Source of the DNA: an uncultured Myxococcales bacterium
GTDB taxonomy: Bacteria > Myxococcota > B64-G9
Direction of reading: 5' to 3'
Assembly (NCBI GenBank): GCA_964640665.1
Contig: CAZXHT010000021.1
Location: forward strand, 5,821 to 69,820
DNA: 64,000 nt
The translations under genes and the position numbers were made by a program. Positions 37,520-52,764 of this stretch are shown here, piece after piece. Position 1 is the stretch's first letter. Each line of letters starts with the position of its first letter. The notes under the pieces are model-generated. The model made no database searches. It was not told the DNA's origin and saw only the letters and a program-made list of their open reading frames with translations.

Positions 37520-39700
37520 CTAATGGTGCCGGCGCCTTTTTCGCCGCCGGCGTTTCTTCTTCTTCTTGGTCTTCTTCTCTTTCGCCAAGCGCTCAGCGGC
37601 CTCTTTCTCTACCTGCTCGAGCGTCTTGCCCTCGCGCAGCCCCTGAGCCTTGTAAAGGTAGATCTGCTCCTGTTTCTCTCCCTCGGGGCCGCCTAAGTAC
37701 TTGAACACCTTGGCAATGTCTTCGTAGACCTTGGATACCTTGGGGCCCGGCTCGGCCGCTTTCTGCATCATCATGGCGCATTTGGCCAGCTTGTCGAGCG
37801 CGTTGTTGGGGTCTTCGCTGTCTAAGTAGATTAATCCCATCTGGCAATAGACCTCGGCCCGTTCGCCGCCGGGCAGCATCAGGCTGTCCTCGAACGCTTG
37901 ACGCGCCTCGTTGTAGAAGGAAAGCTTCTGCTCCTGCTTGTCCTTGGCGTCTCCCAGCTTTTCGGCCATTATCCGGTAGCAGACACCCTTGTAGTAACGC
38001 GCCTCGGGGCTAAGCTCGTCGACCTTGATCGCTTTTTCGAACTCGCTCATCGCGGCCTGCATGTCGTCCATGCGCATGTAAAGATCGCCGACTTTTATTT
38101 GGTAGGCCACGGTTGGCTTCAAGGCTCGCTCAAACTCTCTCAGCTTCTGGATTGCCTGAGTCTTTTCGCCGAGTACGAACTGACTCTCGGCGCGATCGAA
38201 GTAAACCTTGGGCAGACGCGGGTCGAGTTGCAAGGCCCGTGCAAATTCGGCTTCGGCCTTGCTGCCGTCCTTGTTCAGACCGGCCAGGCGTCCGGCCAGG
38301 TCGTGAGCCTCGGCACTCTCGTCGTAGGCCGCGAGCGACTTCCTGAGCCAGGTGTTCGCGCCGGGGACGTCGTCCGTGGCCAGGGCATACTCGGCGCGCA
38401 CCAGGTAGCGCAGCCCGTTCATGGGAGGCGAAAATTCGGAATCGGGGTGGCGCGAGGCATCCAGGAATTCGTCCAGCACCTTCTTGGTAAGCCCCAGATT
38501 CTTGCCGCGTTGAATGTAAGTATACGCCCGGCGCAGGTTCGAGAACATATGGGCCGGGTTCGTCCTTATAGCGTCCTTGAAGTAGCGCATGGCGCGCGGC
38601 AGGTTGCCCTCGCGCAGGTAAACATCGGCGAACAGGGCCTGGTAATGCGGCGAATTACCCGAGAAGCGCGCCGCCCGGCTGTAATCTTCACGGGCCTCCT
38701 TGATCTTACCCTGCAGGAGGCGCGCCCTGGCGCGGACACCGAAGACGCTGGCGTCGAGAAAGATGTCCCTTTTCTTGATGGCTCGATTGATAATCTCGGA
38801 AAGGAACTTGTCGGCCTTTTCGATCTCGCCCTTGTCGATCATGAGCAGGGCCTTGAGCGCGAAGCGCTCCGGGTTGGGCAACTCCTGGTCATTCATCCAG
38901 GCCAGCTGTTTTACGAGCTTGGGTTTGAGATCTTTCTGAGCATGGTTCTGCCACAGGTTGGCGCGAACCCCGGCCAGGCGCATGATCGTCTTGGGCTCGT
39001 CCTCGTCAAGCACGTAAGCCGCCTCGAGGTTACCTAAGGCCCGTTCGAGATCGCCGAAATTATCATGCGGTACCAGGGCGGAGGCCTGGTCGAGCTTGTC
39101 GCGGACTTGCACGCGGATGGCCACGTGGTGGTTGTACCAGATGGCCACCACGACCACGACTGCGGCAACGGCCAGGAGCTGGGCCAAGGTGCGCCACAAC
39201 GGTTTGGGCGGGTCCTGGACGGCGGGCTGGCGGCGAGGCAGCCATGCCTCCGACGGCAGGCCGTTCGACCCCTTGAGCGGCGGGATCTTCTCGTCCAGGG
39301 ACTGCAAGAGCGCGCGGGTGTGCAAATCTCCGGGCACGATCTCCAGAGCGCGCATCAACTCGGAGATGGCCTTATGGTCTTGCCCGCGATCAAGGAAGAT
39401 TTCACCCAGCGCGCGGTGTGCCACCGCCGAATCGGGAGTGGACTTGAGCACCTTCTTCAGGACGATCTCTGCTTTCGGATCGTCGTAGGCCTGGTAGTAG
39501 GACATCCCCAAGGCCAGCAACCCCGAAGGGGCGTTAGGGTTGCTCTTCAATCCGCGCTTGCAGGCCGCGATGGCCTGTTGGGGCAAGCTACGCTCGAGGT
39601 ATGCCTTGGCAAGCGGTACGAAGTTGCCAGGATCTGCCTGAAAATCGGCCTCGAGTCTGTCGATGTCCACCCCGGGACCGCCACCTTTTGCTTCAGCCAT
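37520..39700 (-). CDS. Bitopic multi-TPR protein
   Basis: N-terminal TPRs, TM (LLAVAAVVVVVAIWY), long TPR array, basic tail; ATG 39700 with GGAGGT RBS. Confidence 0.85.
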   Translation of the reverse strand: MAEAKGGGPGVDIDRLEADFQADPGNFVPLAKAYLERSLPQQAIAACKRGLKSNPNAPSGLLALGMSYYQAYDDPKAEIVLKKVLKSTPDSAVAHRALGEIFLDRGQDHKAISELMRALEIVPGDLHTRALLQSLDEKIPPLKGSNGLPSEAWLPRRQPAVQDPPKPLWRTLAQLLAVAAVVVVVAIWYNHHVAIRVQVRDKLDQASALVPHDNFGDLERALGNLEAAYVLDEDEPKTIMRLAGVRANLWQNHAQKDLKPKLVKQLAWMNDQELPNPERFALKALLMIDKGEIEKADKFLSEIINRAIKKRDIFLDASVFGVRARARLLQGKIKEAREDYSRAARFSGNSPHYQALFADVYLREGNLPRAMRYFKDAIRTNPAHMFSNLRRAYTYIQRGKNLGLTKKVLDEFLDASRHPDSEFSPPMNGLRYLVRAEYALATDDVPGANTWLRKSLAAYDESAEAHDLAGRLAGLNKDGSKAEAEFARALQLDPRLPKVYFDRAESQFVLGEKTQAIQKLREFERALKPTVAYQIKVGDLYMRMDDMQAAMSEFEKAIKVDELSPEARYYKGVCYRIMAEKLGDAKDKQEQKLSFYNEARQAFEDSLMLPGGERAEVYCQMGLIYLDSEDPNNALDKLAKCAMMMQKAAEPGPKVSKVYEDIAKVFKYLGGPEGEKQEQIYLYKAQGLREGKTLEQVEKEAAERLAKEKKTKKKKKRRRRKRRRHH

Positions 39701-39785
39701 CGCAACCTCCGGGCAAGGAGCCAAAAAGGTCATAAGATACGAGAATTTTCCAGTCGGAACTTGCATAGCAGAGGCCCGAACCGGT

Positions 39786-39824
39786 TGTCAAGAGTTGACA
39801 CGTACAGAAGGCCTGTCCTAACCT
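39786..39824 (+). promoter_or_regulatory. Back-to-back TTGACA boxes; plus-strand sigma70-like promoter of the cyclase operon
   Basis: TGTCAA-GAG-TTGACA palindrome; TTGACA-N18-TAACCT. Confidence 0.4.
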
Positions 39825-39869: not shown

Positions 39870-42197
39870 TTGCTCAAGCGAATATTTTCATTTACGGGCT
39901 TCAAACTCGGCCTGCTCATCACCCTGCTATTCTGTGCAACCAAGCTTCCCACTTGCGGGCTCACCGAGAGTGGGGCGGTGCAGTTTTTAGACAACATCGA
40001 AAACGCCTGGCTCGACGAGAAGTTCGATATTCGCGGTCAGGGTAGTTCTGACGAATTCCAGAAAAAGGCCCATGTAGTAATAGTGGCCATCGACGAGAAA
40101 TCGACTCGCATGCCCGGTTTGGGTCTGTGGCCCTGGCCGAGATCGAAAATTGCCGAGATGGTAGCACAGATCAACAAATGCGGTGCGAAGGTGATCGGCT
40201 TCGACGTGGTTTTCTCCGAGCCTGACGCCTCGCGAACCGAGCCGGTTGTGCGGCAGATCAAGGAGGCCTATGCCAAGGCCGAACCGCGGGATACTGGTTT
40301 CGAGCGGCACCTTGACGAGATCTATGCCGGCGTTCAGGGAGATCGGGCCCTGGCCAATGTATTGGAGAACGCCGAAAACGTCGTCCTGGGATATTTTTTC
40401 TTCTGCTCACACAAGGAGATCATCAATCTCGATCCCCGAGACATCCAGGCAGGCAAGGAGAGCATCGGCTTCGGGACAATCTCGTTCGCGGTCAAGCCCG
40501 AAGGACACTCTTGGGACGAAATGCGCGGCTCGTTCCCACAGGCGCTGGGCGTCCGAGCAAATCTACCGATATTGAGCGAGGCCGCTGATTCGTACGGCTA
40601 CTTCAATCAGATACCGGACGGAGATAGCATCTATCGCCATGTCCCGATGGTCATGGTATATGACAAACACTTCTATCCTTCTCTGTCGCTGCAGGTCCTT
40701 TCGAGCTACTATGAACAGCCGGTGGAGTTGCTGGTCAACACGTTCGACAGGAAAACGTATTACCCCCGCTATATCGGACTGTACCTGGGCCCGATCGGGA
40801 TGCCCGGCCCGAATCATGTTGAAGTTCCGGTCGAGAGAGGTGCGTTGTTCAGGGTCAACTACTATGGCAGGAATAGGATGTTCAGGCATATCTCGGCCGG
40901 CGATATCATTCACGCTGACCAGGAGGCCTGCCGGGCGGTAAAGGACAAGGTCGTGCTGGTGGGAGCCACGACTATCGGAATCTACGATCTGCGGCCGACC
41001 CCACTGGAGGATTCATTCCCCGGCGTCGAGATCCACGCCAGTGTGATCGAGAACGTGATCAGGCAAGATTTCATGCTGCGCCCGGCGATTTTCTATTTCT
41101 ACGAGGCGCTTTTCATGCTCCTTGCGGGAATCCTTTTCAGCTGGCTGCTCATGCGTTTTCGTTTGACGATCGGACTGGTGATAACCCTGCTTTCACTGGT
41201 CGGGTTGGTGTTATCAGATTTCTTTTTCCTGTTTCGTAACGGCATTCAGGCCCACGTCGTGCTGCCGGTGATGCACCTGGTGGTGCTGTTCGCCGGCATC
41301 GCGGTCTACCGCTATGCCACCGAGGAGCGCGAGAAGAGCAAGATCCGGCATGCCTTCCAGTTCTACCTTTCCAGGGACGTCATCGAGGATGTCATGCGGG
41401 ACACCAGCAAGCTCAAGCTGGGCGGCGAGCGGCGCGAGTTGACGGTCATGTTCTCCGACATCCGCGGGTTCACCACCATCTCCGAGAAACTCGATCCCGA
41501 GGCGCTGACCGAACTGCTGAACGAGTACCTCACCCCAATGACCGAGATTGTTTTTGCGCAGCATGGCACGTTGGACAAATACATAGGCGATGCATTAATG
41601 GCCATTTTCGGCGCCCCGCTGCCTTTCGACGATCATCCCCATGCCGCTTGCCGCGCGGCTCTGGAAATGATGGAGACCCTTGCGCGCCTGCGCCAGGTGT
41701 GGGCCGAGCGCGGCCTGCCCGAGATCGACATCGGGATCGGCGTCAACACCGGAGCCATGTCGGTGGGCAACATGGGTTCTGCCAGCCGCTTTGACTACAC
41801 CGTTCTGGGCGACAACGTCAACCTGGCCTCACGCCTCGAGGGGCTCAACAAAGTCTACCACAGCCACATTATCATCAGCGAGTTCACCCGCGCCGCGGTC
41901 GGGGGGCACTTCACCTGCCGCGAACTGGACGCCGTGCAGGTTAAGGGCAAACAACGCCCGGTGAAGATCTATGAGCTGGTTCACCGCGGGCCGCCGGATC
42001 CGGAGAAGGACGCCTGGATCGGCGACTTCGAGGAGGCTTTACGCCTATATCGTTTGCAGCAGTGGGACGTTGCGGCGGCGGCCTTTGGCAAGCTTGCGGA
42101 CCCGGTTTCGGTTATGTACACGCAGCGCTGCCGGCAGATGGAAGAAGATCCGCCCGGCCCGGACTGGAACGGCGTCAGCAAGATGACATCCAAGTAA
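39870..42197 (+). CDS. CHASE2-domain class III adenylate cyclase
   Basis: AIDEKS...WPWPRS CHASE2, PGVEIHA, 3 TMs, FSDIRGFT, DKYIGDALM, YTVLGDNVNLASRLE (K/T specificity pair, class IIIb). Confidence 0.93.
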   Translation: MLKRIFSFTGFKLGLLITLLFCATKLPTCGLTESGAVQFLDNIENAWLDEKFDIRGQGSSDEFQKKAHVVIVAIDEKSTRMPGLGLWPWPRSKIAEMVAQINKCGAKVIGFDVVFSEPDASRTEPVVRQIKEAYAKAEPRDTGFERHLDEIYAGVQGDRALANVLENAENVVLGYFFFCSHKEIINLDPRDIQAGKESIGFGTISFAVKPEGHSWDEMRGSFPQALGVRANLPILSEAADSYGYFNQIPDGDSIYRHVPMVMVYDKHFYPSLSLQVLSSYYEQPVELLVNTFDRKTYYPRYIGLYLGPIGMPGPNHVEVPVERGALFRVNYYGRNRMFRHISAGDIIHADQEACRAVKDKVVLVGATTIGIYDLRPTPLEDSFPGVEIHASVIENVIRQDFMLRPAIFYFYEALFMLLAGILFSWLLMRFRLTIGLVITLLSLVGLVLSDFFFLFRNGIQAHVVLPVMHLVVLFAGIAVYRYATEEREKSKIRHAFQFYLSRDVIEDVMRDTSKLKLGGERRELTVMFSDIRGFTTISEKLDPEALTELLNEYLTPMTEIVFAQHGTLDKYIGDALMAIFGAPLPFDDHPHAACRAALEMMETLARLRQVWAERGLPEIDIGIGVNTGAMSVGNMGSASRFDYTVLGDNVNLASRLEGLNKVYHSHIIISEFTRAAVGGHFTCRELDAVQVKGKQRPVKIYELVHRGPPDPEKDAWIGDFEEALRLYRLQQWDVAAAAFGKLADPVSVMYTQRCRQMEEDPPGPDWNGVSKMTSK

Positions 42198-42230
42198 TGA
42201 CAGAAAGACAGTTGCTCATGGAGGTTTCTC

Positions 42231-43478
42231 GTGCCATCGCAAGACGTCAAGGAACTTACCCGCTTAAAGGATCGCGCCGCACGCCGCATGGCCAAGGGTG
42301 ACTGGTCGGGTGCGCTCGAGGCTCTTCTCGCGGCTCGCAAACTGGCGCCCAAGGACACCTTCGTGGCCCGCAAGGTGGGCGACATGTACCAGCGGCTGGG
42401 CAAGAAAGAAGGGGCCGTCGACGCCTACGGAAAGGCTGCCGCGCTCTTCGCCAGCGCCGGGTTTCTGTTCAAGGCCATCTCGGTGAACAAGATCATCCTC
42501 TCGATCGATCCCGACCACAAAGGCGTGCAGCGGACACTGGCGACGTTGTACGCCCGGCGGGAAGGACCGGCCGCGGCGCGGGCTCCGGAACTGATCGAGA
42601 TCGAGCCCATGCCGATGCCGGCCTTCGAGATAGACATGGAACTGGCCCGGGTGGACAGGGACAAGCTGCCATGGACGCCCTTGCTTTCGGATCTCGACGA
42701 AAGCGAATTGGACCGGGTGATTGACAAACTGGTCCCGGTCAATGCCGCTGCGGGGACGGTCGTCTGCCGTGAGGGCGACCCCGCCGACTCGATCTACGTG
42801 ATTTCCCACGGGCTGGTGCGCGTATCCGGACGGGATTCCGGCGGTACGCCCGTCTGGCTTGTGAACCTGCGCGAGGGAGAGTTCTTCGGCGAGTTCGGCT
42901 TCTTCTCGGACGGCAAACGGCATGCCGACGTCGTGGCCGTGGAGGACACCGAGCTACTGCAGATCGGCCGCAGGGAGATCGAGGAGATCCTGACCGAGTT
43001 TCCCCGTGTGCGTCAGGTTCTCGAGAAGTTCTACAATTTACGGGTGGTGGACACCCTGCTTGCCAAGAGCAAGCTGTTTGGGAGTCTCGCCCCGGACCAC
43101 CGCCGGGATCTGTTGCTCGAGGCGGCCCTGGAGGTGCATGCAACGGGTTCGATGATAATCCAGGAGGGCGACGACGGCGAGAGCCTCTACGTGATCAAGA
43201 GCGGAGAGGTCGAGGTGTACACTGCCCTGGGGCAAGAGCGTATCGACCTTGCGGTTCTGGGCCCGGGCGAGATCTTCGGCGAGATCAGCATTTTGACCGG
43301 AACGCCGACCACGGCCAACGTGATTGCCCGAACCAGGACGGAGCTGGTCAAGTTCTCCAGGTCCGAGGTGACGGCCATGGCCGACAAGCACCCGCAGCTT
43401 CAGCACCTGCTCTCCGAGACCAAGGACCACCGCGTACACGAAACCGTACAGCGGATCCAGACAGAGGGGTTCGTGTAA
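42231..43478 (+). CDS. TPR + tandem cyclic-nucleotide-binding domain protein
   Basis: N-terminal TPR-like helices; CNB1 EGEFFGE...KRHADV; CNB2 PGEIFGE...PTTANV; GTG start with GGAGG RBS. Confidence 0.88.
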   Translation: MPSQDVKELTRLKDRAARRMAKGDWSGALEALLAARKLAPKDTFVARKVGDMYQRLGKKEGAVDAYGKAAALFASAGFLFKAISVNKIILSIDPDHKGVQRTLATLYARREGPAAARAPELIEIEPMPMPAFEIDMELARVDRDKLPWTPLLSDLDESELDRVIDKLVPVNAAAGTVVCREGDPADSIYVISHGLVRVSGRDSGGTPVWLVNLREGEFFGEFGFFSDGKRHADVVAVEDTELLQIGRREIEEILTEFPRVRQVLEKFYNLRVVDTLLAKSKLFGSLAPDHRRDLLLEAALEVHATGSMIIQEGDDGESLYVIKSGEVEVYTALGQERIDLAVLGPGEIFGEISILTGTPTTANVIARTRTELVKFSRSEVTAMADKHPQLQHLLSETKDHRVHETVQRIQTEGFV

Positions 43479-45145
43479 TGAGCAAGACAACGAAGAAAAA
43501 CGTCCGCATAAGAAGCGACCACACCCGTTACGGCCTCCAGCACGAACTCGACCTCTACAAGGCTCTGGGCGATGTCGGTGGAAAGAACTTTTCGATCGAC
43601 AGGCTGCTGACTCGGTTTCTCTCGCGGGCGATGAAATTCTTCAAGACGAATGCCGGCACGATTTTCACAGTCGATGCGGGCAGCGGGGATCTGATCTTCA
43701 GAATAGTGCGCGGCCCGGCGCGCCGGAATCTGACCGCTAGGCGACTGCGCGCCGGGGAGGGCATCGCCGGCTGGGTAGCCAAGAGCGGCAAGCCCCGGCT
43801 GGCCAGGGACGTGCGCACCGATCCCCTATGGAAGAAATCGCTGGCCAGGGAGGCGGGCTTTCCCACCAAGGACATCCTGGCGGTTCCCATTCGCACGCGC
43901 TCCGGCGGCATCGTCGGAGTGATCGAATTGCTGAACAAACAGGTCCATCCGGGTTTTTCGCGTCAGGATCTCGACAACCTGACGAGCATCTCCGGGTCGG
44001 TCGGGGCCGTGCTGGAGAACGCCCGCCTGTGGGGAGAGGCCCGCCGGCGAAACAAGCAGCTTGCGCTGCTCAACAAGGTCGGCCACCTGATAAACTCCAG
44101 CCTCGATCCGCGCCAGGTACGTCTGAGGACGATCGACGCGGCCATTCGCCTGGTCGGGGCCGCGGCGGGCTCTCTTCTGCTGATCGACCAAGAAAGCGGC
44201 GAGCTGTTCTTTGAGGTGGCGCTGGGAGAAAGGGCGCGCAAGATCCGCAAGGTGCGCCTTGGCAAGGGAGAGGGAATAGCCGGTTGGGTGGTCAAGCACG
44301 GCAAGCCGGTCGTCATCCAGGACTGCTGCAAGGATCGACGCTTCAGTCAGAGGGTGGATCACGTCTCCAAGTTCGTCACCCGCGACATGATCTGCGCTCC
44401 GGTAAAGGTCAAGGGCAGAACGATCGGAGCCATCCAGGCGATCAACAAGAAAAGCGGCAGCTTCGACGACAAGGACATGGAGTTGTTCGTCCTGTTGGCC
44501 GATCAGGTCGGCGTCGCCATGGAAAACGCCCGCCTGTTCGAACGGCTCCAGCAAACCTTCCTGGAGACGTCCGAGGCACTGGCCGAGGCCATCGAGTTGC
44601 GTGACGCGTACACCGGCGGGCACACCCGGCGCGTGACCAGGTACTCACTGGCGACCGGGATTGAGTTGGGACTGGACGAGCCCGGGCTCGAAGAACTGCG
44701 CCTGGCGGCCATTCTACACGACATCGGTAAGCTGGGTGTGGATGACAACGTGTTGCGCAAGCCCGGGCGGCTCGACGAAAAGGAGTTCAGGCAGATGAAG
44801 AAACACCCCCGGTTGGGAGCGGCCATCCTCGATCGCGTCCAGTACCTAAGGCCGGTATTGCCCGGGATTCGCTCGCACCACGAACGTGTCGACGGCAGAG
44901 GCTACCCGGATGGATTGCGCGGCAAAAAGATTCCGCTGGTTGCGCGTATCATCGCCGTCGCCGACACTTATGATGCCATGACGTCCGATCGGCCCTACCG
45001 CAAGGGGCTCCCGAAAAAGACGGCCGTCCAGGAATTGGTCGACTGTTCCGGGGGTCAGTTCGATCGCCGTGTCGTCGAGGCCTTCCTGCGGGCCTACCGC
45101 TCGGGTACGATTACCGGGCGGCGCGAGCGGTTTCGCCTTCGCTAG
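43478..45145 (+). CDS. GAF-GAF-HD-GYP phosphodiesterase
   Basis: Two GAF repeats, RDAYTGGHTRRV, LHDIGK, HHERVDGRGYP, VADTYDAMTSDRPYR; TAATG-coupled. Confidence 0.93.
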   Translation: MSKTTKKNVRIRSDHTRYGLQHELDLYKALGDVGGKNFSIDRLLTRFLSRAMKFFKTNAGTIFTVDAGSGDLIFRIVRGPARRNLTARRLRAGEGIAGWVAKSGKPRLARDVRTDPLWKKSLAREAGFPTKDILAVPIRTRSGGIVGVIELLNKQVHPGFSRQDLDNLTSISGSVGAVLENARLWGEARRRNKQLALLNKVGHLINSSLDPRQVRLRTIDAAIRLVGAAAGSLLLIDQESGELFFEVALGERARKIRKVRLGKGEGIAGWVVKHGKPVVIQDCCKDRRFSQRVDHVSKFVTRDMICAPVKVKGRTIGAIQAINKKSGSFDDKDMELFVLLADQVGVAMENARLFERLQQTFLETSEALAEAIELRDAYTGGHTRRVTRYSLATGIELGLDEPGLEELRLAAILHDIGKLGVDDNVLRKPGRLDEKEFRQMKKHPRLGAAILDRVQYLRPVLPGIRSHHERVDGRGYPDGLRGKKIPLVARIIAVADTYDAMTSDRPYRKGLPKKTAVQELVDCSGGQFDRRVVEAFLRAYRSGTITGRRERFRLR

Positions 45146-45222
45146 ACGAAAGGGCTGGACAGGATGTGCCATTGAAAGTTACAAGGGTGTTGGCATAGAA
45201 CTCATTTCGGGAGCCAGGTTCA

Positions 45223-45873
45223 ATGAGCGGTGAGAGCGACAGGTTATTCGAGCGTTTCGGCAGGGAATTCCCGGCTGGAACGGTCGTGTTCAAGGAGGGC
45301 GACGTCGGCAACGAGATGTACGTCATCCAATCGGGCAAGGTCAACGTCACCAAGGCCGTACGTGGCGTCGAGAAAGTGCTGGTGACGCTTGGCGCGGGGG
45401 CTTTCTTCGGCGAGATGGCAATCATCAACCAGAAACCGCGATCGGCGTCCATTGTCGTGGTCGAGGACGCCCGCCTACTGGTGATTGGCCCCAAGACATT
45501 CGAAACGATGATCAGGGGCAACTCCGAGATTGCGGTGCGCATGATCAAGATCCTGGCACAGCGGCTGCAAGAGGCAGACGAGCAGATCGAGAACCTGATG
45601 CTCAGGGATCACAACAGCCGGGTTGTTCACTTTCTCACCCACCTGGCCGGCAAGGGCAAGCCGGTGGCAGGCGGCGTCTTCGTGGAGGTGGACGCCGCGG
45701 GCCTGGCGAGAAAGATCGGGCTGCAGGAAGAACAGGTCGGCGAAGTGCTCGGCAAGTTGATCAACGCCAAGCTGATTCGCGTCCAGGAAAGTGGCTACCT
45801 GATCCACGACGTGGGGCGCCTGCGCGAGTTTTTGGAGTTTCTGGAGATGAAGGAAAAGTTTGGGGACATCTAG
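45223..45873 (+). CDS. Crp/Fnr-family protein
   Basis: CNB with FFGEMA...PRSASI, C-helix, C-terminal winged-HTH-like region. Confidence 0.88.
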   Translation: MSGESDRLFERFGREFPAGTVVFKEGDVGNEMYVIQSGKVNVTKAVRGVEKVLVTLGAGAFFGEMAIINQKPRSASIVVVEDARLLVIGPKTFETMIRGNSEIAVRMIKILAQRLQEADEQIENLMLRDHNSRVVHFLTHLAGKGKPVAGGVFVEVDAAGLARKIGLQEEQVGEVLGKLINAKLIRVQESGYLIHDVGRLREFLEFLEMKEKFGDI

Positions 45874-45897
45874 CGCCGCGGGGCTATTCTTGCGGAA

Positions 45898-46674
45898 ATG
45901 CCTGCTCACCTGGAAATAGAGGTTCTCGGTTGTCATGGCGGTGAGATGGCGGGTTTCTTCACGCCTAGCCTGCTGATCGACCGGAACATAATGCTGGATG
46001 CCGGCTCCTTCGGTAGTATTTTGTCGCTTCAACAACAGCTCGAAATAGACCATTTTCTGATCAGTCACGCGCACAGCGATCACATCAAGGACCTGGCTTG
46101 CTTCGCCGACCTGGTCATCGGGAGAAGAAAGACCGCCGTCAAGGTACATGCCTCGCCCGGTGCCATGGAGGTGATCCGGGGCGATTTGTTCAACAATCGC
46201 ATGTGGCCCGATTTTTTCTCCCTCCCCAGTCCCGAGCATCCCGTTCTGAAGGCGGCCGTGTTCAAGCCGGGCAGCTCTTTCAAGGCGGGGCACCTGCGGG
46301 TGCATGCCATTCCGGTAAGTCACCCGGTTGAGTCGATGGCCTTCATCATCCGGGGGCCTGGGGGGTCCTTCGTCTATACCGGTGACACAGGGCCGACCGA
46401 TCGCCTGTGGAAATCGGTCAACAGGCTCAAGGATCTCAAGCTGTTGATGATCGAGTGCAAGTTTCCCAATGCGATGCAGATCATTGCCGAGGCGGCCGGC
46501 CATTTGACACCGCGCACACTGGCCAGTGAGCTTGCCAAGGTCCGCGACGATTCGGTGCCCGTCCTGCTCTACCACCTCAAGCCCGATCGCATGAGCGAGA
46601 TAGTGCAAGAGATTTCATCTCTCGGCGATTCCCGCCTCCATATCATGAAGATCGGCGAGCGGATCAGAGTGTGA
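45898..46674 (+). CDS. MBL-fold (class II-like) 3',5'-cyclic-nucleotide phosphodiesterase
   Basis: VLGCHGG, LDAGS, HAHSDHIKDL, SHPVES, YTGDTGP, HLTP, YHLKP. Confidence 0.8.
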   Translation: MPAHLEIEVLGCHGGEMAGFFTPSLLIDRNIMLDAGSFGSILSLQQQLEIDHFLISHAHSDHIKDLACFADLVIGRRKTAVKVHASPGAMEVIRGDLFNNRMWPDFFSLPSPEHPVLKAAVFKPGSSFKAGHLRVHAIPVSHPVESMAFIIRGPGGSFVYTGDTGPTDRLWKSVNRLKDLKLLMIECKFPNAMQIIAEAAGHLTPRTLASELAKVRDDSVPVLLYHLKPDRMSEIVQEISSLGDSRLHIMKIGERIRV

Positions 46675-46677: not shown

Positions 46678-48039
46678 ATGCGCATCGAGCAGGTTACCTC
46701 CTTTCTCTACTCTTTGAAGCCCAAGGGCATCCGCTTCGGGTTGGAAAACACTCGTCTCGTGCTGGACAGGCTCGCCAGGCCCCAGGATGCTTTCGAGGTC
46801 GTTCATATCGCCGGCTCCAACGGCAAGGGCTCGACGGCCGCGTTCGTCGAGTCGATGCTGCTGAGTGGCGGGGTCCGGGTGGGGCTCTACACATCTCCAC
46901 ACCTCGATCATTATCGCGAGCGGTTTCGGGTGGCGGGTAGAGCCGTCGCCGATGCGGTTATCGAGCAGACCATGGATGTCATGCTGGCGGACGGCCTGGA
47001 TCTCGACCCAACCGAAGTCTCCGCCTGGATCGATGAGCGCGGTCTCGCAACCAAGATGGACTCGCGTCACTGGTATCACAATCGCGGCGAAGCCAGCCGG
47101 TTTTGCCGGCTGACTTTCTTCGAGTGCACTACTATCCTGGCCGCTCTGATCTTCGCTCGCCTGCGCGTCGAGGTGGCGGTGATGGAGTGCGGCATGGGAG
47201 GCCGTCTCGACGCCACGAATGTTTTTTCGCCGACGGTGGCCGCAATCGCCCCGGTTAGCCTGGAGCATACCGAATGGCTGGGAGACACGCTTGCGGCCGT
47301 TGCCGCGGAGAAGGCCGGGATCATCAAGCGGGACGTGCCGGTCGTTTGTGCCCGCCAGGAGCCCCAGGCCATGGAAGTGATCGCCGCTAAGGCCTGTGAA
47401 AACGGGGCACCGCTCTTCGTCATGGGCGATTCCTTCGACGCCGAGGGAGAATGGTCGCAGGCCGTGTTCAGGCTCGGCCAAGAGCGCCTGGGCCCGGTTC
47501 GATTGGGACTGGTCGGCCGGCACCAGGTGGATAACGCGGCCCTGGCGCTGGCCTGCCTGCGCTTTTCGTCGCCCGTACTTTTCCCCGGCCGGGACGCTGC
47601 TTGCGAAGGCCTGCGGAAAGCCAGATGGCCTGCACGCTTCGAAGTCTTGGGCGCCGACGGCGAGTGGATCCTCGACGGCGCTCACAACCCGGCGGGAGTG
47701 CATGTTCTGGTAACGACTGTCACGGACATCTTTCCCGATCGCAAGCTGCGGGTGGTGTTCGGTGTGCTCGGCGAGAAGGACGTCGAGTCGATGTTGCGCG
47801 AGATGGAGACCGTCAGCGAGTCGATCGAGCTTGTCATGCCGCCGGATGCCCGCGGGCGCGATCCGGCCGGGTTGGCGTCGCTGGTTCATAGGCCGCACGC
47901 CGTCCACGAATCGGTAGGCGCCGCGCTTTCCAAACTGGCGCGGCAAGAAGGGCCGCCGGTGCTGGTGACCGGTTCGTTGACCGTCGCAGGAGAGGCCAGG
48001 AGATGGTTGCTCGGGCGCAATGGTATCGACGCCTTATGA
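46678..48039 (+). CDS. folC: Folylpolyglutamate/dihydrofolate synthase
   Basis: HIAGSNGKGST, TSPHL, LTFFE, GMGGRLDATN, EKAGIIK, HQVDNA, LDGAHNP, VTGSL. Confidence 0.93.
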   Translation: MRIEQVTSFLYSLKPKGIRFGLENTRLVLDRLARPQDAFEVVHIAGSNGKGSTAAFVESMLLSGGVRVGLYTSPHLDHYRERFRVAGRAVADAVIEQTMDVMLADGLDLDPTEVSAWIDERGLATKMDSRHWYHNRGEASRFCRLTFFECTTILAALIFARLRVEVAVMECGMGGRLDATNVFSPTVAAIAPVSLEHTEWLGDTLAAVAAEKAGIIKRDVPVVCARQEPQAMEVIAAKACENGAPLFVMGDSFDAEGEWSQAVFRLGQERLGPVRLGLVGRHQVDNAALALACLRFSSPVLFPGRDAACEGLRKARWPARFEVLGADGEWILDGAHNPAGVHVLVTTVTDIFPDRKLRVVFGVLGEKDVESMLREMETVSESIELVMPPDARGRDPAGLASLVHRPHAVHESVGAALSKLARQEGPPVLVTGSLTVAGEARRWLLGRNGIDAL

Positions 48040-48043
48040 TGGG

Positions 48044-48083: not shown

Positions 48084-48200
48084 GGTAAGAAACTTGTCCG
48101 GGGTGGGCAAGTGTGGTAGCGTCCTTGTGAGAAAGAAGCGAACGCAGCACCCACATTCCATAGTCGGGATGTGTTATTCGTTCCAGCCGGAGGGCCGAGC

Positions 48201-49676
48201 ATGTCTAATGGTAGAAGCGTGCGGGTAGGCGTGATTCTCTGTTTGCTTACTGGCGTCTGGGGCTTGCAGGTCGAGGCCGCCACGCAGAACCTGATCAGCG
48301 GCGTGCGCGTTACGCAGAACGGCCGGGACACGATTGTCGAGATTGCCAGTGAGCGGGCCCCGAATTTCACCACTTTCAAGCAGGACGTTCCCAGACGAGT
48401 AATTGTCGATGTCGCCGAATGCGGCTTGACCGGAGTTCCGGCACGCATTCTAGGAGACGGGCGGCTGGTTGCGGGTATATCCACCGCGCAGTTTGGCGGG
48501 GCCCCGCACGGGATCTCGCGGGTGGTGATCGGCTTACTCAAGGATGCCGAGTACCGGGTAACCATCCGTGGCGGTTCACTGTTCGTGCACATTTCGGAGG
48601 GGACAGGCGGCCTGCTGGTTTCGGCCGGGGTTCCGACCGCGCCACCGAGGAAAGTCAAGCCCGCCACGGTTGCCTACAACTCGTCGACCAATGACCCGCG
48701 GGATTTGGCCTTGGCCGAGGAACTCGCTCCGCCGAAAGCCGTAAACGCCGGTGAACCGGCCGGCGAACCGGCCAGCGATCCGGAGCCCACAAGCAAGAGC
48801 GTTCCTTCGGCGGACGAGGCCAGCCCGGAGATGACTATCGAGGTTCCTCCCGAGCCAGTCCCTCCCGAGACAGCCCCTCCCGAGAACTCCATCGATCGAG
48901 AGCCTGAGCCAATGAAGGTGGCCATGGTTTCAGAGACGGTCGAGCCGAGCCCGGTTGAATCGGCCGTGCCGCCGCCTGCCACGGAAGCGCCTGCGGCCCC
49001 GGCCGTGACAGTGGCTCAGGAAGATGACACGGGATCTTCGGCGGCGGGCGAGGAAGGTGATGAAGTTGAAGAAGTGGAAGAAGTTGAAGAAGTGGAAGAA
49101 GTGGAAGAAGTTCCGGTCGAGGTGATAGAAGAGCCTGCCGATTCGGGGGAAGCGGTCCCGCCGCCACCCGAGGAAGAAGTGACTCCGCCGCCTCCGCCGG
49201 AGGAAGAGGCTGTACCGCCGCCTCCGCCTGAGGAAGAAGCCGCACCGCCGCCTCCGCCACCCGAGGAAGAAGTGGCTCCGCCGCCCCCCCCGCCTCCCGT
49301 GGAAGAAGCAGTCCCGAGCGAGGAGAGGGTGGAAATCTCGTCGGCGATGAAGGACATGACCTGGGTGGGGTTCCAGCAAACTCGCGATGCCACGCGTGTC
49401 TACGTCAAGACGAACGAACAGGTTACCTACCGGGTTACCGAAGAGAGTGACAATCTCATCGTTCTCGAACTCGAAAACACCCGTATTCCCCTCAGGAACA
49501 ACAGCCGCTTTCTGGATACTCATTTCTTCGACTCGGCCGTCACCATGATCACACCGCACGAGATCGAGGGTGTCACACGCTCGGTACGCATCGAGATTCA
49601 GTTGAAGAACCGCGTGCCGTATAAGACGGTTCAGGAAGAGAACATGGTGTATGTCAATTTCGAAAGGTCCCAGTAA
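48201..49676 (+). CDS. AMIN - acidic Pro-rich linker - AMIN periplasmic protein
   Basis: Signal peptide; PRRVIVDV...SRVVIGL AMIN; C-terminal TRVYVKT...VRIEIQL AMIN; ATG 48201 with GGAGGG RBS. Confidence 0.8.
   Translation: MSNGRSVRVGVILCLLTGVWGLQVEAATQNLISGVRVTQNGRDTIVEIASERAPNFTTFKQDVPRRVIVDVAECGLTGVPARILGDGRLVAGISTAQFGGAPHGISRVVIGLLKDAEYRVTIRGGSLFVHISEGTGGLLVSAGVPTAPPRKVKPATVAYNSSTNDPRDLALAEELAPPKAVNAGEPAGEPASDPEPTSKSVPSADEASPEMTIEVPPEPVPPETAPPENSIDREPEPMKVAMVSETVEPSPVESAVPPPATEAPAAPAVTVAQEDDTGSSAAGEEGDEVEEVEEVEEVEEVEEVPVEVIEEPADSGEAVPPPPEEEVTPPPPPEEEAVPPPPPEEEAAPPPPPPEEEVAPPPPPPPVEEAVPSEERVEISSAMKDMTWVGFQQTRDATRVYVKTNEQVTYRVTEESDNLIVLELENTRIPLRNNSRFLDTHFFDSAVTMITPHEIEGVTRSVRIEIQLKNRVPYKTVQEENMVYVNFERSQ
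49062..49112 (+). repeat. 9-bp tandem repeat GAAGTKGAA x5.7 (EVE)
   Basis: Read directly from the sequence. Confidence 0.9.
49152..49316 (+). repeat. Five (A/V)x-polyPro-EE units with P4, P5, P5, P6, P7
   Basis: AVPPPPEEE VTPPPPPEEE AVPPPPPEEE AAPPPPPPEEE VAPPPPPPPVEE. Confidence 0.85.
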
Positions 49677-52116
49677 CCTGGCTTGTTCGGTCGGCCTGAC
49701 TTCAACCTATATCCTGATCATCATGGCAATGCTGTCGCCCATCCGGGTGGCGGCCGAGGAACGCCCTGGAGATCTTCGATGCCTGCGATCGCCTCCGGGG
49801 CGTGTACGTATCGAGGCCGGAACCCTCTGGGCCCGGACGAAAGGCGGGCCGGTGTTGCTGACCGGAGGGGTAGACATCAGTGGAGAGGGCCTTACGGCCC
49901 GCGCAGACTGGTTGGAGTATTATCCCGGGCAAGACAAGATCGTCATGGCCGGCTCGGTGCGGCTGGTAGAAGGCAATTCGATCCTGCTCGGCCAGCGGGT
50001 GGAACTTAATCGCCGTCTTTCAGGCGCCTTGGTTCGCGGCGCTATTGTCCTTGTTAAAGAAGGTGGCCGACGGGTTCTGTCCGCCGGGGCCACGGCGAGC
50101 GAACTCATGTCCGCGGGGATCAATGCCTTTACCCTGCAGGGCGAGCGTCTGGTTCGCTCCGAGGGACGTTACATTGTCAACGGCGCGCGCTTCACGGCCT
50201 GCGATTGCGGGTCGCAGGCTCCGTCGTGGGAGGTTCGGGCCAGCCGGGCCGACGTCGTGCCGGGCGAACGGGCCTGGTTGATATGGCCGGTACTCTACCT
50301 GAAAGGCCTGCCGGTCTTCGCTCTGCCGGCGGCCTATCTGCCGCTGAGCCGGCGCCGAACGGGTTTGTTGTTTCCTCAGTTGAACTACTCGGGTCGCGAC
50401 GGATTTGTTGTGGGAGAGTCGCTCTTCGTAACCATGGGACGCAGCGCGGACACGACCCTGTCCGTGGACTGGTTCGAGGAGCGCGGCTTCCGCGAGCGTG
50501 TGGAGTTCAGGGCGCGGCCGAGTTGGGCGAGTCTTGTGGAAGCAGGGTTGATGTACATGTACGACGAGAAGATGGCGCAAGAAGAGTCGACTGAACGCCT
50601 GCGGCATCGCTACTCTATAGAGGTCGACGCCCGGGCGGGTCCTGCCGCGGGAACATTTATCTCCGCCTCCATCCGCCTGTACTCGGACAGCAACATCAAT
50701 CGCGACTTCGCAAGCGAGATGGCCGGGCGGGCGGCCGACTTCGCGCCCTCGATGCTGCTTGTGGAACGTCCGGGAAATGACATGCGTCTTTCTGTAGACG
50801 CGACCTACCGCCAGGATCTCAGGCCCTGGGCGGCCGCTCTCTTCGCCTCCCAGGATGGAGATGCGGAAGGGAGCAAGACGCATGACACCATCCAGCGCCT
50901 GGGAGCATTTTCTATGAGCCTGGCACCGCTTGGGCCTTACGGCTGGCCGCTGTTGTTTTCGGCCGAGGTCGAGGGCGCCAACCTGTCATCGATCACGGCC
51001 GGCTTCAGGGATTGGGGCCCGGATGGCACGCCCGACGCCAAGGAGCCGCGCTACGCGGATCCGCTCGGCGCCGACTACGGAGCCGACAACGGGGCGGGTG
51101 GAGAAGCTGACGGAGTACTAGGTGTAGGCGAATTACGGCGCGCTTTCAGGTTGCTGATCGAGCCGCGTGTCAGCCTTCCGCTGCGGCTGGGTCGCTTTGC
51201 GATGCTTACGGCCACAGCCAGCCACCGCCAGATGGCCTACCTGCCGCACGGACCCGGGACTGAAACCGTGGACCCCGACCCGTCCACTCGCGGCCTGACC
51301 TTTGCTCAACTGTCATTGAACAGCGAGCTTTCGCGCTCCTATGGTACCGGTGATTCACGCATTGGGCACGTGCTGTCGCCATGGGTTCGCCTGCTGGGCG
51401 CCTGGCGAGGGCTCGAATCGAGCGGGCCGCTCGTCTATCTCGATTCGAAAGATCGCCTCATGGCGGATGCGCAACAACTCCTTTTCGGTCTGGACAACGC
51501 ATTTTACAGACGCGCTGCGAAGCGGGGCTTCAGCCGCTGGCTGTGGTTTTCGCTCATGCAGGGGGTCGACCCGGGAAGGGGTAAACTTTCGCAACTGGCC
51601 ACCGAGGTGAGCTTCACACTGAAACCGCTGACGGGCGACGCGCAACTCTCCTATGACTGGAACGAAAACAAGCTGGCCGAAGCCGACGCCGGCGTGAGCT
51701 TCACAGACCGGCGCGGCGACCGGGTGAAGGTTTCTTACCTCTACCTGCCTTCGGTGCGTGATCCCTCCGGGCGTCCCTTGCCGCTTGGCGAGCGAACGCA
51801 GCGCGAGGAGGGCTTGTTGTTCGGGGCGCCAGGCGAGTACTACCGCGCGCTGGGGGAGAGCCTGCACGTGATCGAGGCGACCGCCACGGCGGAGTTGGCC
51901 TGGGGCCTGGCGGTCAGCCTGGGAGGAAGCCTCGACCTGAGGGAGACGGCTTTAGCCTGGTACGGCGGCGGTGTCCGCTATCAGTCGAATTGCCATTGTT
52001 GGGGATTCTCGTTGACGGCACGCATGCTGCGCGGCCAGGATTTTCCCGACATATTCTTCCTGTTGGACCTGGCTTACCTGGGCGCAGCCGGGGTGGGAAA
52101 CAATACGCGCTTCTGA
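49651..52116 (+). CDS. lptD: LPS-assembly protein LptD
   Basis: OstA-like N-domain, FTACDCG...PSWEVRA, LPVFALP, RRTGLLFP, barrel ending YQSNCHCWGF. Confidence 0.85.
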   Translation: MSISKGPSNLACSVGLTSTYILIIMAMLSPIRVAAEERPGDLRCLRSPPGRVRIEAGTLWARTKGGPVLLTGGVDISGEGLTARADWLEYYPGQDKIVMAGSVRLVEGNSILLGQRVELNRRLSGALVRGAIVLVKEGGRRVLSAGATASELMSAGINAFTLQGERLVRSEGRYIVNGARFTACDCGSQAPSWEVRASRADVVPGERAWLIWPVLYLKGLPVFALPAAYLPLSRRRTGLLFPQLNYSGRDGFVVGESLFVTMGRSADTTLSVDWFEERGFRERVEFRARPSWASLVEAGLMYMYDEKMAQEESTERLRHRYSIEVDARAGPAAGTFISASIRLYSDSNINRDFASEMAGRAADFAPSMLLVERPGNDMRLSVDATYRQDLRPWAAALFASQDGDAEGSKTHDTIQRLGAFSMSLAPLGPYGWPLLFSAEVEGANLSSITAGFRDWGPDGTPDAKEPRYADPLGADYGADNGAGGEADGVLGVGELRRAFRLLIEPRVSLPLRLGRFAMLTATASHRQMAYLPHGPGTETVDPDPSTRGLTFAQLSLNSELSRSYGTGDSRIGHVLSPWVRLLGAWRGLESSGPLVYLDSKDRLMADAQQLLFGLDNAFYRRAAKRGFSRWLWFSLMQGVDPGRGKLSQLATEVSFTLKPLTGDAQLSYDWNENKLAEADAGVSFTDRRGDRVKVSYLYLPSVRDPSGRPLPLGERTQREEGLLFGAPGEYYRALGESLHVIEATATAELAWGLAVSLGGSLDLRETALAWYGGGVRYQSNCHCWGFSLTARMLRGQDFPDIFFLLDLAYLGAAGVGNNTRF

Positions 52117-52120: not shown

Positions 52121-52744
52121 TCAGTCTTTCCGGCGGATGCCGTCGAGGAACATCTTGACCAGGCTCGATTTAAGCGCTTCGAAATCGTCCGCGCCGGGGG
52201 TAAGGGTGTTCAACAGATATCCGGTCAGGACGAGTTCAAGTGCACCGAAGAAACAGTAGGCCATGAACTTGGGGTCGAGACCGGGCTGGATTTCGCCTGT
52301 TTTCTGGTGATCTTCCAGGATCTCGGCCAGGCGGTTGAAGACCCTCTCGTAGACCTCGATCTGGGGCTTTTTCAAGAACTTCGAGGATCGTGCGATCTCG
52401 ATCACCGTTACCTGGATGATCTCCGGTGCAAGCCGATATGCATCGCAGATGAACGAAACTATTGCCAGAAGCCTTTCATCGAGGCTTTCGGACTGTTCGA
52501 CGGTGGTGTCGATTACCTTGCTCAGAAGCCCCCAGTTCTCGTCGAAGATCGAGCTGAGGATCTCTTCCTTGTTCTCGAAGTAGTGATAGACCAGTCCGTA
52601 GGCCACCTCGGCCTCGGTCGCTATGTCCGATATCCGGCAGCGGGCAAAGCCCTTCCTGGCAAAAACGGTGACCGCCGCCTTCAGAATCTTGCGCCTCTTT
52701 TTCTGGGTTGCGCTCTTGCGGTTTCTTGTAGTGCTTTTGGCCAT
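52121..52744 (-). CDS. TetR/AcrR family regulator
   Basis: ILKAAVTVFARKGF...ISDIATEAEVAYGLVYHYFENKEEIL. Confidence 0.93.
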   Translation of the reverse strand: MAKSTTRNRKSATQKKRRKILKAAVTVFARKGFARCRISDIATEAEVAYGLVYHYFENKEEILSSIFDENWGLLSKVIDTTVEQSESLDERLLAIVSFICDAYRLAPEIIQVTVIEIARSSKFLKKPQIEVYERVFNRLAEILEDHQKTGEIQPGLDPKFMAYCFFGALELVLTGYLLNTLTPGADDFEALKSSLVKMFLDGIRRKD

Positions 52745-52764
52745 CTGTAGTTTGCCTGAAAAAG

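Follow-up and report, generated by a model that had tools for sequence, protein, structure and literature searches.

A recurrent gene cluster of an uncultured Myxococcales bacterium as a candidate cAMP module with a CHASE2 writer, several readers and a PdeE-like eraser

Do neighbouring genes for the synthesis, binding and breakdown of cyclic nucleotides form one signalling circuit, and what would such a circuit control? The question is raised by a 64 000-nucleotide stretch of contig CAZXHT010000021.1 from an uncultured Myxococcales bacterium (the whole stretch, about 60% G+C throughout, is called the window below). Five consecutive genes of the window encode a CHASE2-type adenylate cyclase, a protein with a TPR-like N-terminus and two cyclic-nucleotide-binding domains (TPR-CNB-CNB), a GAF-GAF-HD-GYP enzyme, a CRP-like protein and a phosphodiesterase (PDE) of the metallo-β-lactamase (MBL) fold. 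An earlier reading, made from the letters alone (the sequence-only reading), had taken them for a self-contained cyclic-nucleotide circuit of one writer, two readers and two erasers. On balance, we favour a chromosomal module for cyclic AMP (cAMP) in which a CHASE2 writer would serve outputs of the CRP, scaffold and GAF-HD-GYP types and a PdeE-like enzyme would act as the eraser.

The five genes all lie on the plus strand and carry the domains that the sequence-only reading had assigned to them, as judged from the list of open reading frames and from Pfam (Table 1). In gene order, from the cyclase through TPR-CNB-CNB, HD-GYP and crp to the PDE, they are separated by 33, −1, 77 and 24 nt, and the 1-nt overlap described earlier between the TPR-CNB-CNB and HD-GYP genes is indeed present, as TAATG at 43476–43480. 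The left edge of the cluster is marked by a conserved promoter-like box and by a gene on the opposite strand, and this boundary is real because that upstream gene is read the other way. On the right, the description as self-contained fails: folC starts 3 nt past the PDE gene, with no intervening terminator, and the co-directional run goes on through folC to the genes of an AMIN-domain protein and LptD. A closed five-gene unit is also contradicted by the relatives of the cluster, in some of which (the loci L088 and L089 and that of Stigmatella) parts are dispensable.

The presumptive writer matches the Pfam families CHASE2 (E = 1.1e-55; 189.5 bits; residues 31–421) and Guanylate_cyc (5.7e-26). 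Its catalytic domain is closest to Pseudomonas aeruginosa CyaB (3r5g; 151 bits), and other class III cyclases also match. Subclass IIIb is characterized by two metal-binding Asp residues, a substrate-specifying Lys and Thr (the ATP pair) and a transition-state Asn and Arg. All six residues (D530, K570, D574, T644, N651 and R655) align residue for residue with 3r5g and are conserved in 12 orthologues. This places the protein, at the sequence level, among the class III adenylate cyclases of subclass IIIb and bears out the earlier claim of a full catalytic set with the Lys/Thr pair (K570/T644). The hydropathy profile has one segment before CHASE2 (residues 5–31) and three after it (405–483). The predicted topology is thus that of a CHASE2 receptor, in which the domain is bracketed by membrane segments and faces outwards, and the enzyme is predicted to make cAMP.

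The CRP-like protein is the first candidate reader. It matches cNMP_binding (1.6e-24) and HTH_Crp_2 (29 bits; cut-off 27) and aligns over its full length with the CRPs of Thermus thermophilus and Mycobacterium tuberculosis, with 7pza and with GlxR. Its cassette, FGEMA...RSAS, is canonical, with the Gly-Glu ... Arg-Ser/Thr-Ala arrangement of the CRP-family phosphate-binding site, and FFGEMAIINQKPRSAS is kept in 13 orthologues. The orthologues are 45–97% identical over all clades, and the protein is among the best-conserved parts of the set. In Escherichia coli CRP, the DNA contacts are made by R180, E181 and R185. The recognition helix of the window protein, QEEQVGE, is acidic and varies among the orthologues; because it is variable and without the Arg-Glu...Arg pattern (R-E-x3-R), DNA binding is only putative and no target site can be predicted. 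Both arginines are absent despite the HTH_Crp_2 match and the full-length alignment, and the conserved element is instead the LREFLEFLEMKEKF helix; the C-terminal helix RLREFLEFLEMKEKFGDI is the best-conserved element of the C-terminal part. The CRP-like protein may work by contacting other proteins instead of DNA. Canonical CRPs do not have the terminal helix RLREFLEFLEMKEKFGDI found in its C-terminal part (residues 140–216).

The TPR-CNB-CNB protein combines a weak TPR match with two cNMP_binding domains (2.5e-46), and the nearest solved structures to its CNB tandem are PKG and the PKA regulatory subunits (PKA-R), a relation that is clear at the fold level. In CNB-A the phosphate-binding cassette has the form FGE...R.A (FGE...KRHA in the window), and its Glu and Arg are kept in all homologues. 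In CNB-B the Arg is replaced by Thr, giving PTTAN in the window and in L081, L083 and L084; the distant lineage introduced below as clade B keeps PRTAT. The two intact cassettes of a PKA-R-like tandem are therefore not present, as CNB-B is without its Arg, and only one of the two sites probably binds nucleotide in the window's clade. The N-terminal 135 residues (42231–42635) form a TPR-like module with 894 representative relatives at E ≤ 1e-10. This module heads many proteins of 400–840 residues, is repeated 8–20 times in proteins of about 3000 residues and occurs joined to PilZ in P0044 and P0045, both from Myxococcota. It has the look of an output or adaptor unit that second-messenger receptors can reuse. 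There is also a weak match to the N-terminal region of SgmX, a type IV pilus protein.

The GAF-GAF-HD-GYP protein matches two GAF domains followed by HD_5 (1.9e-36) and HD, and the HD dyad and HHERVDGRGYP are found in its sequence. The residues H382, H414-D415, K418, H443, H467-H468-E469 and D472-G-x-G-Y-P (D472-G-R-G-Y-P477) are invariant in seven orthologues, as is the guanine-recognition motif R505-P-Y-R508, a canonical Rxx(K/R). The enzyme thus has the features by which HD-GYP phosphodiesterases for cyclic di-GMP (c-di-GMP) are recognized in sequence, namely the HD dyad, the His/Asp ligands, HHExxDGxGYP and Rxx(K/R), and is probably a c-di-GMP-degrading enzyme. GAF-B scores 84 bits against the GAF domain of Leptospira Lcd1 (5w10), 77–78 against PDE5 and CyaB2 and 58 against PDE10, and GAF-A matches GAF-B of PDE2A with 45–51 bits. 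These matches to GAFs of the cyclic nucleoside monophosphate (cNMP) type, at 84–44 bits, compare with at most 33 bits for GAFs of the haem, NifA or PtsP types, which assigns both domains to the cyclic-nucleotide-binding subfamily. The classical motif of cNMP-binding GAFs is NKFDE, and its NK...F...D part is conserved in both domains. The GAF tandem is likely to be a third cAMP reader besides the CRP-like and TPR-CNB-CNB proteins; the earlier count of two readers is off on this account and also on account of the Arg missing from CNB-B.

The MBL protein matches Lactamase_B_2 (69.5 bits) and PDEase_II (PF02112; 46.6 bits against a cut-off of 23.7). Its motif H57-x-H59-x-D61-H62 is invariant in 36 homologues, as are the other metal ligands. 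The window protein has HAHSDH, with Ser in place of Leu; L084 has HAHLDH, and clade B has the class II signature, HTHLDH. The AlphaFold model (pLDDT of 93.5) matches YhfI, BA1088, RNase Z, Apyc1 and yeast PDE1 (4ojv), the last of which has the top query TM-score (0.82), and a sequence search of the PDB returned weak matches only. NCBI gives the name 3',5'-cyclic-nucleotide phosphodiesterase to the orthologues (about 47% identical) of cultured Stigmatella, Hyalangium and Corallococcus. The MBL fold, the HxHLDH-type motif and the profile score above threshold are those of a class II PDE, with the caveat that Lactamase_B_2 scores above PDEase_II and that the fold comes just as near to YhfI and RNase Z. 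The protein is best read as a 'class II-like PDE', with cAMP as its presumed substrate.

Taken together, these assignments suggest the following scheme. The CHASE2 receptor cyclase, in which the catalytic residues are in place, would sense an extracytoplasmic cue and convert ATP to cAMP. The CRP-family protein would bind cAMP, with an output that is possibly transcriptional; the tandem cNMP-type GAFs would probably switch on c-di-GMP hydrolysis by the HD-GYP domain, by analogy with Tlr0485; and the PKA-R-like TPR-CNB-CNB adaptor would bind the nucleotide, here probably via CNB-A only, and act via its TPR module. The PdeE-like class II enzyme of the MBL fold would hydrolyse cAMP and reset the system. 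Transcription would probably run from the conserved promoter in front of the cyclase gene through folC, with AMIN-lptD read from a promoter of its own.

Several observations weigh against this circuit. The recognition helix of the CRP-like protein departs from that of DNA-binding CRPs, CNB-B has lost the phosphate-binding Arg in the window's clade, and the final Glu of NKFDE is not conserved in either GAF. The MBL protein widely misses the NCBIfam equivalog for cyclic nucleotide-degrading phosphodiesterases (NF041851; 39.7 against 400 bits, over the C-terminal half only), and its likeness to YhfI and RNase Z is roughly as strong as that to PDE1. For some half of the close GAF-HD-GYP homologues, the neighbourhood contains no cNMP gene. 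An internal promoter may lie in the 77-nt gap before crp, in which case the five genes may not be one transcript. No diguanylate cyclase was seen in the window, and the source of c-di-GMP therefore has to lie elsewhere. We hold the proposed circuit with moderate confidence because several of its ligand sites are non-canonical.

Table 1. Genes and promoter-like elements of the cluster and its flanks (window positions)
Feature	Position	Strand	Basis
TPR protein, 748 aa, many TPR families; divergent from the cyclase gene	37520..39766	−	Pfam
Promoter-like element of the cyclase gene (TTGACA, 18 nt, TAACCT)	39795..39824	+	Predicted
CHASE2 class IIIb adenylate cyclase, 775 aa, TTG start	39870..42197	+	Pfam, alignment to 3r5g
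TPR-CNB-CNB protein, 415 aa	42231..43478	+	Pfam
GAF-GAF-HD-GYP phosphodiesterase, 555 aa	43478..45145	+	Pfam
CRP-like CNB and winged-helix protein, 216 aa	45223..45873	+	Pfam
MBL-fold class II-type PDE (PdeE-like), 258 aa	45898..46674	+	Pfam, model
FolC (folylpolyglutamate/dihydrofolate synthase)	46678..48039	+	TIGR01499, 336 bits (cut-off 163)
Promoter-like element of AMIN-lptD (TTGTCC, 17 nt, TG-n-TAGCGT)	48094..48122	+	Predicted
Two-AMIN-domain secreted protein	48171..49676	+	Pfam AMIN 2e-13, two stretches; N-terminal hydrophobic segment
LptD-like outer-membrane lipopolysaccharide-assembly protein	49651..52116	+	Weak Pfam LptD and LptD_N; NCBIfam LptD 3e-15, below cut-off
TetR-family regulator, convergent	52121..52780	−	NCBIfam TetR-type matches

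What speaks for a functional unit is recurrence. The profile search of genome contigs with the TPR-CNB-CNB alignment returned, among the matches listed, only proteins of at most 40% identity; the close relatives (58–91%, from metagenome-assembled genomes of Myxococcota) were found via contigs encoding homologous proteins. The order of the five genes is kept both in the near loci L081, L083 and L084 and in the distant loci L108, L113 and L115. The three near loci have the whole arrangement TPR(−)|cyc-TPRCNB-HDGYP-crp-PDE-folC-AMIN-lptD|TetR(−) at 58–91% identity, and L082 ends after the HD-GYP gene. The TetR gene, found also in L081, L083, L084 and L088, is the right edge of this conserved block, and folC keeps its position in L081, L083, L084, L088, L089 and the Stigmatella locus (L087). 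Conserved order within the window's clade proves little, however, because the whole 15-kb block is conserved there, including the unrelated folC and TetR genes.

The distant loci are more telling. L108, L113 and L115 (clade B, a distant unplaced lineage whose trigger factor is 33–34% identical to those of named relatives) have the full order cyc-TPRCNB-(GAF)HDGYP-crp-PDE in genomic DNA of 44–60% G+C with unrelated flanks. Their gaps are at most 20 nt, with overlaps or gaps of at most 20 nt in L113, and their identities to the window proteins are 33–36% for the cyclase, 39–41% for the CNB region, 51–55% for the HD-GYP enzyme, 57–59% for the CRP-like protein and 42–45% for the PDE. Altogether, over 20 loci have the same gene set in a changed order or in incomplete form: HDGYP-crp-cyc-PDE in L092, HDGYP-PDE-cyc in L106, HDGYP-crp-TPR-FecR-FecR-cyc in L090, cyc-TPRCNB-HDGYP-crp in L009, TPRCNB-HDGYP-PDE in L002 and further shuffled or partial sets in L095 and L097. 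In the cultured Archangium (L018, L023 and L075, from A. violaceum, Archangium sp. and A. lansingense) the arrangement is crp(−)|cyc-cyc-TPRCNB. Among the loci of close GAF-HD-GYP homologues, 16 of 30 have another cNMP gene on the same strand within 6 kb, a proportion that becomes nine of 14 where both flanks extend over at least 3 kb. Recurrence in shuffled orders and different contexts therefore points to functional linkage, in the form of a modular set and not of a fixed cassette, and argues for a link between the five genes that goes beyond local synteny. That they are neighbours only by inherited synteny in one lineage and work independently is very improbable: the conserved 15-kb block would allow it, but the families recur at a distance with other flanks and in other orders (cyc-CNB2-HDGYP-crp-PDE, HDGYP-crp-cyc-PDE and HDGYP-PDE-cyc, besides the Archangium order), and in L113 they are packed to within 20 nt or overlap.

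The partial sets also suggest how the cluster was assembled. The TPR-CNB-CNB gene is missing from L088; L089 (cyc-HDGYP-crp-folC-AMIN-lptD) lacks both this gene and that of the PDE; the order in L094 is HDGYP-accD-folC...lptD; and Stigmatella aurantiaca has crp-PDE-accD-folC-hydrolase-AMIN-lptD only. This distribution points to crp-PDE-(accD)-folC-AMIN-lptD as an ancient core, upstream of which the cyclase and HD-GYP genes, and then the TPR-CNB-CNB gene, would have been added. The divergent gene for the 748-residue TPR protein has orthologues of 52–93% identity in the same position in L081–L084 and L088; its membership of the module is uncertain because it is absent from the clade-B loci L108, L113 and L115. 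A large TPR protein is also encoded divergently from the cyclase gene in L113 (3010–5475, minus strand), there fused to a Ser/Thr kinase, and no orthology between it and the window protein is detectable.

With regard to transcription, the box in front of the cyclase gene is conserved as TTGAC[AT]-N17-18-TA[AG]CCT in L081, L082, L084 and L088, in intergenic DNA that has otherwise diverged. The box in front of the AMIN gene is conserved as AAACTTGT[CA]C-N17-18-TGnTAnnnT in the window, L081, L083, L084 and L088. A generic promoter scan gave nothing above chance, and the cyclase box is absent from its list because its −10 element is weak. The terminator scan found no hairpin at the gene ends from the cyclase gene to folC and one weak hairpin (48152–48173) in the gap between folC and AMIN. 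The 77-nt gap before crp is conserved only in part; a sigma-54 reading of CTGGACAGGATG in it was rejected, since the GG–GC spacing differs between the window and L083. The likeliest units are AMIN-lptD and cyc-to-folC, the latter perhaps with an additional start in front of crp; in L113 and L115 a single operon seems to comprise lptD together with the five genes. An Rfam scan of the entire window found no riboswitch and no other RNA family.

The search for CRP-type sites found no palindrome common to the orthologous intergenic regions. TGTCA-N5-TGACA at 39786–39800 was rejected as such a site, being better read as two back-to-back −35 boxes, and an AT-rich palindrome at 48055–48070 was rejected for want of sequence conservation. 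The latter, TAATTATGTATAATTA, is one of the perfect palindromes of an AT-rich stretch at 48040–48093 just upstream of the AMIN-lptD box; L081, L084 and L088 have AT-rich DNA at the equivalent place, with no conserved motif.

As to the output of the circuit, the sequence-only reading had looked to MshEN and PilZ receptors, the type II secretion system (T2SS) and Tad pili nearby. Two MshEN proteins, the T2SS and Tad-like genes are present in the window, but no PilZ protein came to light: Pfam scans of 40 open reading frames gave no match, and the matches of a motif search fell in spurious frames only. The T2SS and Tad genes were rejected as the best output candidates, as they are not conserved beside the cluster in distant loci. 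The neighbours that do recur are lptD, folC and genes of the lol, bam and lpx groups, so the theme that emerges from gene content is outer-membrane biogenesis and not T2SS or Tad. Downstream of the module, lptD is found in the window, L081, L083, L084, L088, L089, L094 and L087 (15806–18355), preceded by the AMIN gene in the window's clade, L089 and Stigmatella. In clade B it is the very next gene after an 8-nt gap (L108, 12596–13138; L113, 12608–14941; L115, 12652–14823), and in L113 and L115 the flanks other than lptD differ. The AMIN protein could be a partner of LptD. Its gene overlaps lptD by 26 nt, and its two AMIN domains lie about 230 residues apart, joined by a Pro/Glu-rich low-complexity linker with EEVEEV and PPPPEEE repeats.

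A second envelope association was found for the TPR-CNB-CNB family. Full-length homologues (29–40% identity, N-terminal module included) are encoded between lolCE and lolD in 22 loci, including L001, L003–L008, L011–L017, L019, L021, L026, L027, L029, L085 and L086 (for example L003, 8578–20144). There lolCE scores 406–457 bits with TIGR02212, above the cut-off, and the best model for lolD, TIGR02211, falls just below its own. In about ten of these loci bamA-skp-lpxD-fabZ-lpxA follows, in several together with lpxB. The hosts are metagenome-assembled genomes labelled Deltaproteobacteria, Thermodesulfobacteriota, Syntrophobacterales and Zetaproteobacteria/Mariprofundaceae, in addition to metagenome contigs. 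L085 has three tandem TPR-CNB-CNB copies. A text search of the literature searched found no paper combining LolCDE with cyclic-nucleotide-binding proteins.

These neighbourhoods allow a different view of the circuit, in which it is a controller of envelope assembly: the CHASE2 cyclase would report the envelope or periplasmic state, and the cAMP readers would tune LptD, Lol, Bam and lipid A instead of motility or secretion. The target of the TPR-CNB-CNB protein would then be the transport machinery and that of the CRP-like protein the expression of lptD, leaving c-di-GMP hydrolysis as a side branch. We consider this possible but doubtful. In its favour, besides the placement of lptD and of the TPR-CNB-CNB homologues among lol genes, are the lpxB, lspA, mlaC and outer-membrane efflux (OEP) genes of the window, and the M. 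xanthus cAMP mutants cyaA, cyaB and cbpB have, to go by the titles of the papers, osmotic and temperature phenotypes. Adjacency of lptD is not regulation, however, and lptD stands in mixed operons in other bacteria, for example E. coli; moreover, AMIN-lptD has its own conserved promoter-like box in the window's clade, L090 and L106 have module genes without lptD, and no CRP-type site could be defined in the intergenic comparison. A functional link between the cAMP module and envelope assembly is accordingly rated as rather unlikely, because adjacency does not amount to regulation and lptD has a promoter of its own in the window's clade. The broader suggestion that cAMP regulates outer-membrane biogenesis in Myxococcota and in 'delta' and zeta lineages, with the TPR-CNB-CNB family as a cyclic-nucleotide-responsive accessory factor of envelope transport machines, is put forward as tentative.

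The assignment of the eraser has an alternative of its own, in which the MBL protein is not a cAMP eraser but a phosphodiesterase of the RNase Z/YhfI type or a broad, Apyc1-like cNMP nuclease. Consistent with this are the top fold matches to YhfI and BA1088, which are of uncertain substrate, the similar scores of RNase Z and Apyc1, the higher score of Lactamase_B_2 and the NCBIfam matches, all sub-threshold (RNase Z and cyc_nuc_deg_phdiest). There is also a precedent in SpdA of the Sinorhizobium meliloti cyaD1 locus, which proved, against expectation, to be a 2',3'-cNMP PDE. On the other hand, the PDEase_II match exceeds the Pfam threshold, the same family ranks first for the L113 orthologue (63 bits), and the query-normalized TM-score is highest for yeast PDE1. 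The gene lies directly 3' of the crp-like gene in nine of the ten loci that have both (in L092 the cyclase gene stands between them), and in Stigmatella its start abuts the crp stop. M. xanthus, moreover, has a described class II PDE, PdeE, which reportedly hydrolyses both cAMP and cGMP. The alternative is judged unlikely, and equally unlikely is its consequence, a cluster without a dedicated cAMP PDE; we retain the PdeE-like eraser.

The second alternative concerns the HD-GYP enzyme, which might act on 3'3'-cGAMP (cGAMP), alone or together with c-di-GMP, so that cross-talk would run from cAMP to cGAMP. The second-best solved relative is V-cGAP3 (5z7c; 1.2e-39); V-cGAP1 degrades cGAMP although its signature residue is likewise Arg, which makes dual activity conceivable for enzymes of the Arg type; and myxobacteria use cGAMP, the synthase of which, GacB, is activated by cAMP. 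However, the signature of cGAMP-specific HD-GYP enzymes is Rxx(Q/N) in place of Rxx(K/R), RxxQ in PmxA of M. xanthus, and the change Q518R turns PmxA into a c-di-GMP enzyme (bioRxiv 10.1101/600031). The window enzyme and all six orthologues compared have RPYR, the canonical c-di-GMP type. The best solved relative is the GAF-HD-GYP c-di-GMP PDE PmGH (4mcw; 2e-52, residues 195–538), and the window showed neither a Hypr-GGDEF nor a DncV-like gene. A cGAMP-specific enzyme is disfavoured because the guanine-recognition motif is an invariant RxxR and not RxxQ, and action on cGAMP in either form is improbable. Thus, of the cross-talk from cAMP to c-di-GMP or cGAMP put forward by the sequence-only reading, the c-di-GMP branch is plausible, with Tlr0485 as precedent, and the cGAMP branch is not upheld.

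Every component of the proposed circuit belongs to a studied family, and the step from cAMP through a GAF domain to an HD-GYP domain has been shown biochemically elsewhere. According to a 2020 study, cAMP bound to the GAF domain of Tlr0485 switches on c-di-GMP hydrolysis by its HD-GYP domain. Like the window enzyme, Tlr0485 has a cNMP-type GAF fused to a complete HD-GYP domain, and the same mechanism is proposed here; the likeness is one of domain architecture. Tlr0485 has one GAF and the window protein two (clade-B relatives have one). The window gene differs further in its neighbours, which encode a presumptive cyclase, a cAMP PDE and further cAMP receptors. PmGH of Persephonella marina, which has a trinuclear iron site, has the metal ligands, GYP and Rxx(K/R) in common with the window enzyme; it has a single GAF and no reported operon context with cAMP genes. 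Tandem GAFs of the same subfamily precede an HD-superfamily PDE domain in mammalian PDE2, PDE5 and PDE10 (GAF-A/GAF-B, with NK...F...D), and tandem cNMP-binding GAFs precede the catalytic domain in cyanobacterial CyaB1 and CyaB2. Those proteins carry a class I cNMP PDE or a cyclase where the window protein has HD-GYP, and the last Glu of NKFDE is not conserved in the latter.

At the level of gene clusters, the closest comparison is with S. meliloti, which has the CHASE2 cyclases CyaD1, CyaD2 and CyaK, the CRP-like Clr and SpdA, a class III metallophosphoesterase acting as a 2',3'-cNMP PDE (PMC4222275; PMC13001267). As in the window, the cyaD1 locus brings together a CHASE2 receptor cyclase, a CRP-family receptor and a presumptive PDE. 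Unlike the window, this locus of an alphaproteobacterial plant symbiont has no HD-GYP gene, no tandem-CNB gene and no link to lptD. Within the same phylum, M. xanthus has relatives by family of several components: the class II PDE PdeE, the receptor cyclases CyaA and CyaB and CbpB, which is said to contain two cAMP-binding domains. Its cAMP genes have been described singly, however, and not as one cluster. M. xanthus GacB is a cAMP-activated GAF-Hypr-GGDEF protein (bioRxiv 10.1101/600031), in which cAMP likewise acts through a GAF on cyclic-dinucleotide metabolism. PmxA differs from the window enzyme in architecture as well as in its motif (Cache-HAMP-HD-GYP with RxxQ against GAF-GAF-HD-GYP with RxxR). 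In the predatory 'delta' bacterium Bdellovibrio bacteriovorus, cAMP gates c-di-GMP degradation through Bd1971, a CNB-EAL protein and cAMP/cGMP-dependent c-di-GMP PDE (PMC6717892); there, sensor and EAL catalysis are in one polypeptide, with no writer-reader-eraser cluster.

The locus therefore adds no new principle, because all of the component families and the key cross-talk step are already known, and the 'hard-wired' cross-talk claimed earlier is likewise a known principle, as Tlr0485, Bd1971, GacB and the S. meliloti locus are documented. What was not described in the literature searched is the clustering of all parts, their stepwise modular make-up and the association with lptD and lol. 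A predicted writer, three types of reader and an eraser are here contained in one compact, recurrent and modular cluster, which would offer a natural minimal system for asking how one cAMP pulse is split among a transcription-factor-like receptor, a scaffold-type receptor and a c-di-GMP-degrading enzyme. The stepwise assembly of the circuit would also be visible in it, from crp-PDE through the addition of cyclase and HD-GYP to that of TPR-CNB-CNB. The placement beside lptD and lol is unexpected and, if functional, would tie a second messenger to the transport of lipopolysaccharide and lipoproteins, where few regulators are known. Cultured myxobacteria that are amenable to genetics carry the crp-PDE-folC-AMIN-lptD core, so part of this can be tested directly.

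Further genes were noted elsewhere in the window. A complete T2SS set lies on the minus strand at 6790–21059 (GspC, GspD, GspE with MshEN, GspF, pseudopilins, GspK, a GspL-like protein and GspM), with lspA (signal peptidase II) embedded in it at 13786–14334. Between this set and the GFO-lpxB genes, a stand-alone MshEN protein of 367 residues (22016–23119) carries KLGTNLVELGYVNEHDLAKLLSAQ, which is near the c-di-GMP-binding MshEN motif with Lys in place of the first Arg. Eukaryote-like domains are found in a full-length serpin (371 bits; 5342–6619, minus strand) and in an 811-residue protein of many EGF repeats (34277–36712), which is also present in L081. At 56746–62025 lie genes for a Tad-like secretin, a CpaF-type ATPase with an N-terminal FHA domain and an FHA-FHA-TPR protein; Tad-like/FHA genes likewise follow the conserved block in L088.

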